A stretch of 64,000 nt of DNA from Acidimicrobiales bacterium (GTDB taxonomy: Bacteria; Actinomycetota; Acidimicrobiia; Acidimicrobiales; Aldehydirespiratoraceae). Made by a program: the position numbers and the translations under genes. Location: positions 1,604,798 through 1,668,797 of the forward strand of contig OZ220727.1 in NCBI GenBank assembly GCA_965116865.1, written 5' to 3'. Shown here in pieces: positions 15,261-16,565 of this stretch. The notes beneath the pieces were generated by a model. The model saw nothing but the letters and a program-made list of their open reading frames with translations, was not told the origin of the DNA and did no database searches. Every line of letters begins with the position of its first letter. Position 1 is the first letter of the stretch.

Positions 15261-16565
15261 CTCCTGATGTGCGCCGCTGCCCTCGCCGCAGCGGCCTGCG
15301 GGTCCGACGACGCCGCTCTGAGAGCTCGAACCGAGGCCGAAACACCCACCCAAGCCGCGGTCGAGGCCGAGACAGCCGCGCAGGCAGCAGCCCAAGCCGA
15401 AGCAGTCCAAGCCGAGGAGGAGGCGGCCAGAACCGCGGCCGAGGCCGAAGCAGCCCAAGAGGCCGCCGCCCTAGCAGCCGCCGAGGCAGAAGCAGCCCAA
15501 GCAGAAGCTGAAGCCGCCAGAGCCGCCGCGGCAGCCGAAGCCGAATCCCAAGCCGAGGCCGCCGCCGAAGCATCCCAGGCCGCCGCCCAAGCCGAAGCAG
15601 CCGCGCAAGCAGCCGCCCAAGCAGAAGCAGAAGCAGCCGCGCAAGCAGAAGCAGCCACGCAAGCCGCCGCCCAAGCAGAAGCAGAAGCAGCCGCGCAAGC
15701 CGAAGCAGAAGCAGCCGCGCAAGCCGCCGCCGAAGCAGAAGCCGCCGCCCAAGCAGAAGCAGAAGCAGCCGCGCAAGCCGCCGCCGAAGCCGAAGCAGCC
15801 GCGCAAGCCGAAGCAGAAGCAGCCGCGCAAGCAGAAGCAGCCGCGCAAGCCGCCGCCGAAGCCGAAGCAGCCGCGCAAGCCGCCGCCGAAGCCGAAGCAG
15901 CCGCGCAAGCCGCCGCCCAAGCAGAAGCAGAAGCAGCCGCGCAAGCCGCCGCCGAAGCCGAAGCAGCCGCGCAAGCCGCCGCCCAAGCAGAAGCAGAAGC
16001 AGCCGCGCAAGCCGCCGCCGAAGCCGAAGCAGCCGCGCCCACCACCACAGCCGCGCCCACCACCACAGCCGCGCCCACCACCACAGCCGCGCCCACCACC
16101 ACAGCCGCGCCCACCACCACAGCCGCGCCCACCACCACAGCCGCGCCGCTCATCGAGACGGGTGTGCCGTCTCAAGACATGATCGACTTGCGCACCGGAG
16201 CGACCGTCGACCTTCGCGATTTCGTTGACGGCTCGACACCCCTGCTGCTGTGGTTCTGGGCGCCCCATTGACCGACCTGTCGGCGGGATGCCTCGCCGGT
16301 CGGGCAGTTCGCCCGAGACAACGAGAACAAAGTCATCGTCATAGGCGTGGGCGGTGCTGACAGTCTGAGCCAAGCCGAGAGCTTCGTGGCCTCGGCCGGC
16401 GGCCCGCCCCACATGCTGTGGAGCGAGTCCTACACCGCATGGAACCACTACCGGGCCGGGAACCCCCAACTCATGCTGCTCGACGGCGCCGGCGTGTCAG
16501 TGGTCGAGAAGGTCAGCGGCTTCAACCGAAGCCGCCTCCAGGACGCACTGGACGGCATCACCTAG
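15237..16565 (+). CDS. thioredoxin-fold (TlpA/ResA-like) lipoprotein with a long Ala/Glu/Gln spacer and an in-frame TGA at 16269 (candidate Sec, or a nonsense mutation)
   Basis: Lipoprotein signal MRTRLLTRLLMCAAALAAAAC. About 250 aa of AEAEAAAQ low complexity, then APTTTA x6. The sequence then reads LLLWFWAPH-TGA-PTCRRD...KVIVIGVGG...NPQLMLLDGAGV. The downstream track ORF 16347..16565 is in the same frame, with no other stop in between. Confidence 0.55.
16272..16303 (+). promoter_or_regulatory. hairpin immediately 3' of the in-frame TGA (possible bacterial SECIS)
   Basis: Lower stem CCGACC (16272-77) pairs with GGUCGG (16298-303). Bulge UGUC. Upper stem GGCGGG pairs with CUCGCC, including one G-U pair. 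Apical loop AUGC at 16288-91, which is 17-20 nt after the UGA. Confidence 0.3.

Follow-up and report, generated by a model that had tools for sequence, protein, structure and literature searches.

A stretch of 64,000 nucleotides from an Acidimicrobiales bacterium (contig OZ220727.1, positions 1,604,798 to 1,668,797), which we call the window, contains a gene for a predicted thioredoxin-fold lipoprotein whose long open reading frame (ORF) carries an in-frame TGA codon at positions 16269-16271. According to the ORF list and its translation, the frame starts upstream of this codon, reads ...STPLLLWFWAPH*PTCRRDASPVGQFARDNENKVIVIGVGG...NPQLMLLDGAGV... around it, and remains open for another 97 codons until a TAG stop at 16563-16565. 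The TGA occupies the first cysteine position of a CxxC motif (WFWAPH-U-PTC, where U denotes selenocysteine, Sec). A first-pass annotation made from the sequence had described this placement and a frame open to 16565, and both are confirmed by the ORF and translation. The comparisons described below provide good support for the view that TGA 16269-16271 is a genuine, evolutionarily conserved Sec codon, and we consider it very probable that in this marine actinobacterium the gene encodes a membrane-anchored, extracytoplasmic thiol-disulfide oxidoreductase of the DsbF/DsbE/TlpA-like type, with Sec as the attacking residue of the sequence U-P-T-C.

All features of the locus named here are on the forward strand. 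We place the whole gene at 15237-16565: its start region is triplicated, and we take the third ATG as the start, with UGA 16269 inside the frame and the TAG at 16563-16565 as its end. This extent is based on the ORF and its translation and on synteny with the b-type genes (defined below) of two related genomes, L002 and L005, and the triplicated start region makes the true start uncertain. A lipoprotein-type signal peptide, MRTRLLTRLLMCAAALAAAAC, is encoded at 15237-15299 and was assigned by eye from a lipobox-like AAAAC followed by GS. To the eye, MRTRLLTRLLMCAAALAAAAC-GS is also similar to the lipobox in the neighbouring PstS (LVAAAC-GG) and to that in relatives, including the L002 paralogs. 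A low-complexity linker rich in Ala, Glu and Gln follows at 15300-16147 and separates the lipid anchor from the catalytic domain by about 280 residues. Tandem Repeats Finder and the translation resolve this linker into imperfect 30-102-nt repeats coding for Ala, Glu and Gln and then, at its end (16030-16147), six perfect 18-nt repeats encoding PTTTAA; the b-type gene of L002 has a linker of the same type. The N-terminal part of the thioredoxin-fold domain, which ends in WFWAPH, spans 16148-16268 and was delimited by Pfam and PDB matches. Next come the UGA, assigned as Sec in the first position of UxxC on the strength of TGA conservation and of the Cys aligned with it in distant homologs, and a TGT at 16278-16280 for the putative resolving Cys of U-P-T-C. 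The 97 codons at 16272-16562 complete the thioredoxin fold, an assignment that rests on their equal length in six species, the lack of stops, the ratio of nonsynonymous to synonymous substitution rates (dN/dS), and an alignment of the family profile to M. tuberculosis DsbF.

The TGA codon is conserved in two paralog lineages

A scan of one genome per species yielded five relatives (L002-L006), comprising Candidatus Aldehydirespirator and other Acidimicrobiales or Acidimicrobiia metagenome-assembled genomes (MAGs), whose proteins are 74-83% identical in amino acid sequence to that of the window. All five carry TGA at exactly the same codon, in the context WFWAPH-TGA-P[IV]C. In the genes that we call b-type, which include that of the window, 97 codons run from the TGA to a common stop. 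Four of the five related genomes have a second tandem paralog (a-type) approximately 1.26 kb upstream of the b-type gene, in which WFWAPH-TGA-PxC is followed by 98 codons. Ten genome-derived copies from six species and two paralog lineages consequently have TGA, and not TGC or TGT, in the column whose codon the first-pass annotation had left to be read from orthologs. Cysteine is found at this column further off, in L007-L023, 17 homologs of no more than 44% identity that read WFWAPHCPxC.

The same TGA, with identical flanks, is present in a 7.4-kb sponge metagenome contig from JGI (3300003175; L001). This contig has two fewer PTTTAA units than the window and breaks inside the repeats (L001 1-140). 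Because the copy number differs, L001 must have been assembled independently of the window; either the number of PTTTAA copies truly varies or such repeats are difficult to assemble. For the codons after the TGA, comparison of the window with its orthologs gives dN/dS values of 0.25-0.51, and no copy contains a stop or an indel. On these substitution patterns, the reading frame downstream of the TGA is under purifying selection. We rejected a genome-wide reassignment of UGA because TGA also serves as the terminating codon of the L002 b-type gene (L002_b), of all four a-type copies, and of most metagenome members.

To gauge the size of the family, metagenomes were scanned with the exact pattern TGGTTYTGGGCNCCNCAYTGACC, which encodes WFWAPH-UGA-P and matched at least 120 loci. 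Together with the genome-derived copies there are at least 137 occurrences representing 107 distinct sequences of the TGA plus 57 nt, each with at least 90 in-frame codons after the TGA, the rest being duplicates or, for the most part, truncated by contig ends. Nearly all of the 107 have approximately 95-107 codons of TlpA-like sequence after the TGA, with pairwise identities down to about 30%. The second Cys of UxxC is invariant among them (TG[CT] at positions 10-12 in 107/107), whereas WFWAPH does not vary because the search pattern prescribed it, and variant paralogs surfaced only incidentally. Tandem TGA-form paralogs with variant motifs occur in L086 (near 851), L112 (near 813) and L141 (near 4534), which read H-U-TIC, F-U-TTC and H-U-STC, and they carry the same distal hairpin (hairpin 2, described below) at 30 nt. 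Since such paralogs exist, the scan pattern under-samples the family. In three metagenome loci (L029, L106 and L127) the TGA is followed by 224-304 in-frame codons, compared with approximately 98 elsewhere; either the normal stop is missing or the gene is fused to the following one.

A covarying hairpin follows the TGA codon

The minimum free energy (MFE) fold of the window sequence places two hairpins inside the coding sequence after the UGA. Hairpin 1 (16280-16299) has the stem 16280-16287/16292-16299 and the loop AUGC, and hairpin 2 (16300-16316) has the stem 16300-16305/16311-16316 and the loop AGUUC at 16306-16310. The first-pass annotation had proposed a single interrupted hairpin of 12 bp at 16272-16303 as the signal adjacent to the TGA. 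Such a structure can indeed be drawn, with five outer base pairs, a bulge, and seven inner base pairs closed by the loop AUGC. Its inner core (16280-16299) is real, in a register that varies through the family, whereas the outer five base pairs (16272-16276/16299-16303) are not conserved: they need a G at position 35 (counting from the U of UGA, as for all hairpin positions below), which only 10 of the 107 sequences have, and they would compete with hairpin 2. The better conserved element is hairpin 2, which was absent from that annotation.

Hairpin 2 consists of a 6-bp stem (positions 32-37 with 43-48) and the loop A-G-U-U-Y. Positions 32-48 are almost invariant across the 107 sequences, synonymous sites included. 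The Glu codon is GAG in 106 and the Gln codon CAG in all 107; for Ala, 92 sequences use a codon with T in the third position, an unusual choice in genomes with 65-70% G+C. Where the stem does vary, it does so in pairs. Overall, 97.2% of cells in the comparison are paired, and 34 cells are doubly compensated, as against 4.6 +/- 1.8 in shuffles (0/500 shuffles as high). When the 3′ partners were slid as a control, only 16-47% of cells could pair. The pair 35-45 is AU in 91 sequences, GC in nine, CG in five, and UA and GU in one each, so that the third position of the Ala codon (45) covaries with the second position of the codon three upstream (35); the pair 33-47 is CG in 85, UA in 18, UG in two and GU in one, with one mismatch. 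The window itself carries the compensated G35-C45 variant.

Hairpin 1 has a stem of at least 5 bp in 100 of the 107 sequences, in registers i+j = 40, 41, 43 and 44, and several pair types occur within each register. The register groups were picked by best hairpin, and the covariation evidence is weaker than for hairpin 2. A single fixed-register consensus for hairpin 1 failed, the a- and b-type paralogs pairing in different registers. The recurrence of the TGA and of the two-hairpin layout throughout the 107 distinct relatives makes the pattern more than a matter of chance.

The Cys forms (n = 17) provide a natural comparison. They make only one to four of the six hairpin-2 pairs. Calculated MFE values are lower for TGA forms than for Cys forms in the hairpin-1 region (-12.0 versus -5.6 kcal/mol, p = 9e-9), in the hairpin-2 region (-9.1 versus -2.7 kcal/mol) and in the region 7-49 (-21.4 versus -13.4 kcal/mol). 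Measured against synonymous recoding of the same peptides, TGA forms have z scores of -1.55 for hairpin 1, -2.83 for hairpin 2 and -2.24 for the region 7-49, and the corresponding values for Cys forms are +0.06, +0.67 and +0.30 (p ~1e-8 to 1e-9 for the last region). The window fold alone gives z = -2.05 in this test (5/300). Mann-Whitney p values for the contrasts between TGA and Cys forms range from 1e-6 to 5e-11 and overstate the independence of sequences that are phylogenetically related; nevertheless, the contrast is qualitative despite this kinship. Judged by these comparisons, both hairpins are specific to the TGA forms and are absent from the Cys forms.

The arrangement resembles bacterial Sec insertion sequence (SECIS) elements, as known from E. 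coli fdhF and from the bSECISearch model, in that the UGA is followed at once by a hairpin within the ORF. The conserved loop falls within the 16-37 nt from the UGA that bacterial SECIS models allow, and the G-U at positions 2-3 of the AGUUC loop is comparable to G23/U24 of E. coli fdhF. There are differences as well. Two tandem hairpins are present here rather than one, no bulged U is evident, and the loop lies 34 nt after the UGA instead of the approximately 18-19 nt of E. coli. Hairpin 2 is the probable SelB-binding core of a SECIS. A more specific proposal is that the element is bipartite, the register-variable hairpin acting as a folded spacer that brings the distal 6-bp AGUUY-loop hairpin, 34 nt after the UGA, within reach of SelB; we put this forward tentatively and regard it as somewhat doubtful. 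If true, the bipartite layout would give the bacterial SECIS a separate type of architecture, used by a large family of exported DsbF-like selenoproteins of Acidimicrobiia that has escaped annotation so far and in which some members are tandemly duplicated. The two-hairpin SECIS with its distal conserved loop is the only feature of the gene that is even mildly unusual. The covarying hairpin 2 also offers a clean training example for models of bacterial SECIS elements, which Rfam does not cover.

Selenocysteine machinery in related genomes

We searched for the Sec machinery by tblastn with E. coli SelA, SelB and SelD and with Acidimicrobiales-like SelA, SelB, SelD and NifS, and for tRNA genes with ARAGORN, in the window and in approximately 1 Mb of related loci. 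The only selB match among those loci is in an Acidimicrobiales MAG (L016), where it lies beside a Cys-form tlpA-ccdA pair. In that locus selB is divergent from the Cys-form tlpA-like lipoprotein gene and ccdA (3-890, minus strand, and 1070-2707, plus strand). A search with the L016 SelB gave more than 4,000 homologs, many of which are named selenocysteine-specific elongation factor and come from Acidimicrobiales, Ilumatobacteraceae or Actinomycetota. Among the matches listed from two such searches (the best 120 of 4,488 with the fragment, and the best 120 of 7,984 with a 14-sequence profile), SelB proteins from assemblies of Acidimicrobiales and Actinomycetota are very frequent.

ARAGORN found no tRNA gene in the window and no tRNA-Sec in the loci, the only tRNA-Sec being in L148, a 994-kb ENA contig (66% G+C) from a related actinobacterium. 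There, genes for tRNA-Sec, SelA, SelB, SelD and a NifS-like protein are clustered at 6545-12019. The L148 selB, whose product is one of the homologs found with the L016 SelB, was called as two ORFs (466 and 133 aa) that overlap, which may reflect a frameshift, and the L148 selD is a Cys form. Approximately 5 kb downstream of the cluster lies a gene for a UGSC selenoprotein (16633-17154) that gene callers split at its TGA. Its UGA is followed by 14 nt and then by GAGC-GGUCU-GCUC, which has the same stem and the same NGUYN loop type as hairpin 2, GAGC-AGUUC-GCUC in most members. When all loci were scanned for the hairpin-2 motif after an in-frame TGA, only further TlpA paralogs and this UGSC gene came up, and a scan of the window for other in-frame TGA codons with coding signal on both sides gave nothing convincing.

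Published surveys are in keeping with these findings. SelA and SelB COGs co-occur in most sponge-symbiont bins and are reported to be enriched in sponge symbionts (PMC5649159), and in the Acidimicrobiia genus Actinomarina the Sec machinery was found in all 84 complete genomes examined (bioRxiv 10.64898/2026.04.03.716425). On such indirect grounds, it is plausible that the source genome encodes Sec machinery.

Alternative explanations for the in-frame TGA

Several observations weigh against a functional Sec codon or against the roles that we assign to the hairpins and to the protein. No selA, selB, selD or tRNA-Sec gene was found in the 64-kb window or in any TGA-form locus examined; for sel genes in the window, tblastn and ARAGORN agree with the first-pass annotation, which had listed none. 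Taken alone, the window fold is unexceptional against dinucleotide shuffles (z = -1.0). No Rfam family reaches its gathering threshold anywhere in the window, and a scan of 16230-16360 at a permissive E-value produced chance-level matches only. The hairpin-2 loop starts 34 nt after the UGA, which is 16 nt further than in the L148 UGSC gene and near the far end of the range in bacterial SECIS models. Neither the window nor the closest relatives have ccdA adjacent to the gene. Finally, DsbE and DsbF of M. tuberculosis, the solved structures closest to the enzyme, are reportedly oxidants rather than reductants, so that the enzyme may act in either redox direction.

With these points in mind, we considered whether the TGA might be a defect in the gene or in its sequence, as the first-pass annotation had allowed. 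A nonsense mutation of TGC or TGT to TGA would truncate the protein after WFWAPH and leave the downstream part to decay. It is true that gene callers stop at the TGA, that public collections hold N- or C-terminal fragments only, and that in the window genome a deletion has apparently removed the a-type paralog next to the gene. However, six species and both paralog lineages share the TGA, which recurs in 107 distinct sequences that were read directly, so that it is no alignment artefact. The 97 codons that follow are equal in length, are free of stops and indels and have dN/dS below 1 (0.25-0.51); they are homologous to the rest of the DsbF fold, and they contain RNA hairpins that covary in TGA forms only. 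A pseudogene is therefore an explanation to which we attach almost no credence. An error that created the A at 16271 fares equally poorly. The adjoining repeats do assemble with different copy numbers, and nothing else specific speaks for an error, which is excluded by the identical TGA and flanks of the independently assembled L001 and by the presence of TGA in every close relative; any remaining chance of a miscall is vanishingly small.

The UGA might also be translated without Sec, either by near-cognate read-through with Cys or Trp, or because a recent loss of sel genes has left the gene silent or poorly expressed, even if its ancestors used Sec. The use of Sec is patchy among bacteria, and the search for Sec machinery, which covered the 64-kb window and the TGA-form loci, was negative. 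This explanation is nonetheless improbable, because the window retains an intact, SECIS-like hairpin 2 with the compensated pair G35-C45, the window copy is under the same purifying selection as its orthologs, and simple read-through has no use for a dedicated RNA element that covaries. Less probable still, and in our estimation very unlikely, is termination at the UGA followed by re-initiation at GTG 16347 to make two proteins. An internal ORF of 72 aa does begin at this GTG (16347-16565), and gene callers report fragments of about 77 aa. Such a scheme would lose 16272-16346, the most conserved part of the gene, which encodes the xxC of the active site, a conserved segment with EAP and QFA, and the strand that comes first after the helix. 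Moreover, the C-terminal piece would have no signal peptide, and the thioredoxin fold is contiguous across the UGA in the DsbF alignment. We prefer the reading of TGA 16269 as a Sec codon. The first-pass annotation had named Sec as a candidate, and this proposal has gained from the TGA in orthologs, the Cys in distant homologs, the conserved downstream frame and the covariation of hairpin 2.

The encoded protein resembles actinobacterial DsbF and DsbE

With U read as C, the 139-aa domain narrowly passes the Pfam cut-off for Redoxin (PF08534; 27.2 versus 26.6 bits) and marginally that for AhpC-TSA (26.4 versus 26 bits). Both models match 40 of 40 diverse family members, with a best E-value of 8.6e-15. 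Among NCBIfam models the window domain is most similar to DsbE-type proteins, at scores far below the cut-offs, and no curated NCBIfam selenoprotein model matched it. Searches of PDB gave M. tuberculosis DsbF (Rv1677, 3IOS) and DsbE/MPT53 (Rv2878c, 1LU4) as the best matches of solved structure, with E-values of 3.6e-10 and 6.4e-6 for the window protein alone and of 3.4e-25 and 5.7e-21 for a 40-member family profile. The DsbF match covers profile positions 29-135 and therefore extends on both sides of the Sec codon and to the C-terminus. The profile also matches ResA, CcmG/DsbE, StoA and CycY (1e-11 to 1e-7), and thioredoxins follow. These Pfam and PDB matches support the TlpA/ResA-type fold that had been recognized in the first-pass annotation; the lipoprotein layout given there is in keeping with the lipobox-like motif as read by eye.

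The active site WAPH-U-PT-C aligns with WAPW-C-PT-C of DsbF, and the wider context is LWFWAPWCPTCQGEAPVVGQ in DsbF compared to LWFWAPHUPTCRRDASPVGQ here. The window protein thus differs from DsbF in having Sec for the first Cys and His for the Trp just before it. At the putative cis-proline position the b-type protein of the window has NP, within GNPQLMLLDG; in most family members GQPA stands there, opposite QQPA in the alignment with DsbF. In the a-type TGA forms (L002-L005) and in the Cys-form L007, R-N-S-S or V-N-S-H stands in place of the cis-proline loop.

DsbF, DsbE and the window protein are all actinobacterial and share an extracytoplasmic, TlpA-like thioredoxin fold, the export of the window protein being predicted from its signal sequence. 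Unlike DsbF and DsbE, the window protein has the linker of about 280 aa between its putative lipid anchor and the domain, and its gene has a SECIS-like element inside the ORF. In contrast to the oxidant-type DsbE and DsbF, part of the TGA-form family is linked to ccdA. A ccdA-like gene begins approximately 10 nt or less downstream of the stop of the TGA-form gene in about 10 metagenome loci, an arrangement that recalls ResA, CcmG and TlpA with their CcdA pathway, although it is not present in the window. The tlpA-ccdA pair is also found in several Cys-form loci. In the one locus inspected for this, L060, no resB or resC follows the pair. The ccdA linkage points to a reducing pathway fed by CcdA for at least part of the family, and on balance we lean towards a reductant, as in ResA and TlpA, rather than an oxidant.

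A model for selenocysteine insertion and function

From these comparisons we infer how Sec insertion, SelB binding, lipoprotein export and electron flow might proceed. UGA 16269 would be decoded by Sec-tRNA(Sec) delivered by SelB, which would be recruited by a two-part mRNA signal lying immediately downstream within the coding sequence. Hairpin 1 is probably a compact structured spacer that folds the intervening 22 nt and would thereby put hairpin 2 at a workable distance from the ribosomal A site, and hairpin 2, through its A-G-U-U-C loop, probably binds SelB. The protein would be exported, lipid-anchored at Cys21, and held off the membrane by its long linker. Its selenolate would attack disulfides (or oxidised thiols) of substrates, giving a selenenylsulfide that the remaining Cys of the CxxC-type motif would resolve, and the enzyme would probably be recycled through a membrane electron carrier of the CcdA type.

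Relation to known selenoproteins

UxxC thioredoxin-like selenoproteins are established in bacteria, as the first-pass annotation had stated: TlpA- and Redoxin-type members have been catalogued since 2005 and are of marine metagenome origin (PMC1088965; PMC13188914). The catalogued families include a 'thiol-disulfide isomerase-like (cd02966, UxxC)' and a 'Redoxin family protein (PF08534, UxxC)', with the reference accessions MGB1650493.1 and HEU0032618.1 (PMC13188914). Compared by description only, these families and the window gene have in common the superfamily, the UxxC motif and a marine metagenome origin, and the best Pfam match of the window protein is Redoxin PF08534, as in the catalogued Redoxin family protein. 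Because such proteins were catalogued so long ago, the gene is best regarded as an unannotated addition to an already known kind of UxxC thioredoxin-fold selenoprotein, a conclusion that we consider well supported, and one that overturns nothing in current understanding.

What the gene would add to the Actinobacteria is an exported, lipid-anchored selenoprotein of the DsbE/DsbF type. An implication is that sponge-associated bacteria may depend on selenium for extracytoplasmic redox chemistry. Public protein collections contain only N-terminal and C-terminal fragments of the TGA-form clade; gene callers split the gene at the TGA, and at least 107 distinct members, many of them from Acidimicrobiia of marine, sediment, mat and sponge-associated origin, probably suffer from the same mis-annotation.

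The start region of the window gene

Two further observations concern the 5′ end of the gene. The window is without the body of an a-type gene (approximately 660 nt; window 15104-15294 compared with L002 4622-5285). Its single gene joins the start context of an a-type gene, which overlaps the stop of an upstream HhH-like gene, to the linker and domain of a b-type gene. In this comparison it looks as if a deletion has fused the a-type and b-type paralogs.

In addition, a perfect 72-nt tandem repeat (2.5 copies, 100% identity) is present at 15079-15260. It triplicates the end of the upstream gene, with its final codons and TGA stop, and a ribosome-binding-like site, GGGGAAGGA, as well as the ATG and first eight codons (MRTRLLTR) of the selenoprotein gene. 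The triplication is either a recent duplication or an assembly artefact. The resulting ATGs at 15093, 15165 and 15237 share one frame, and the hydrophobic signal sequence directly follows the third one only.

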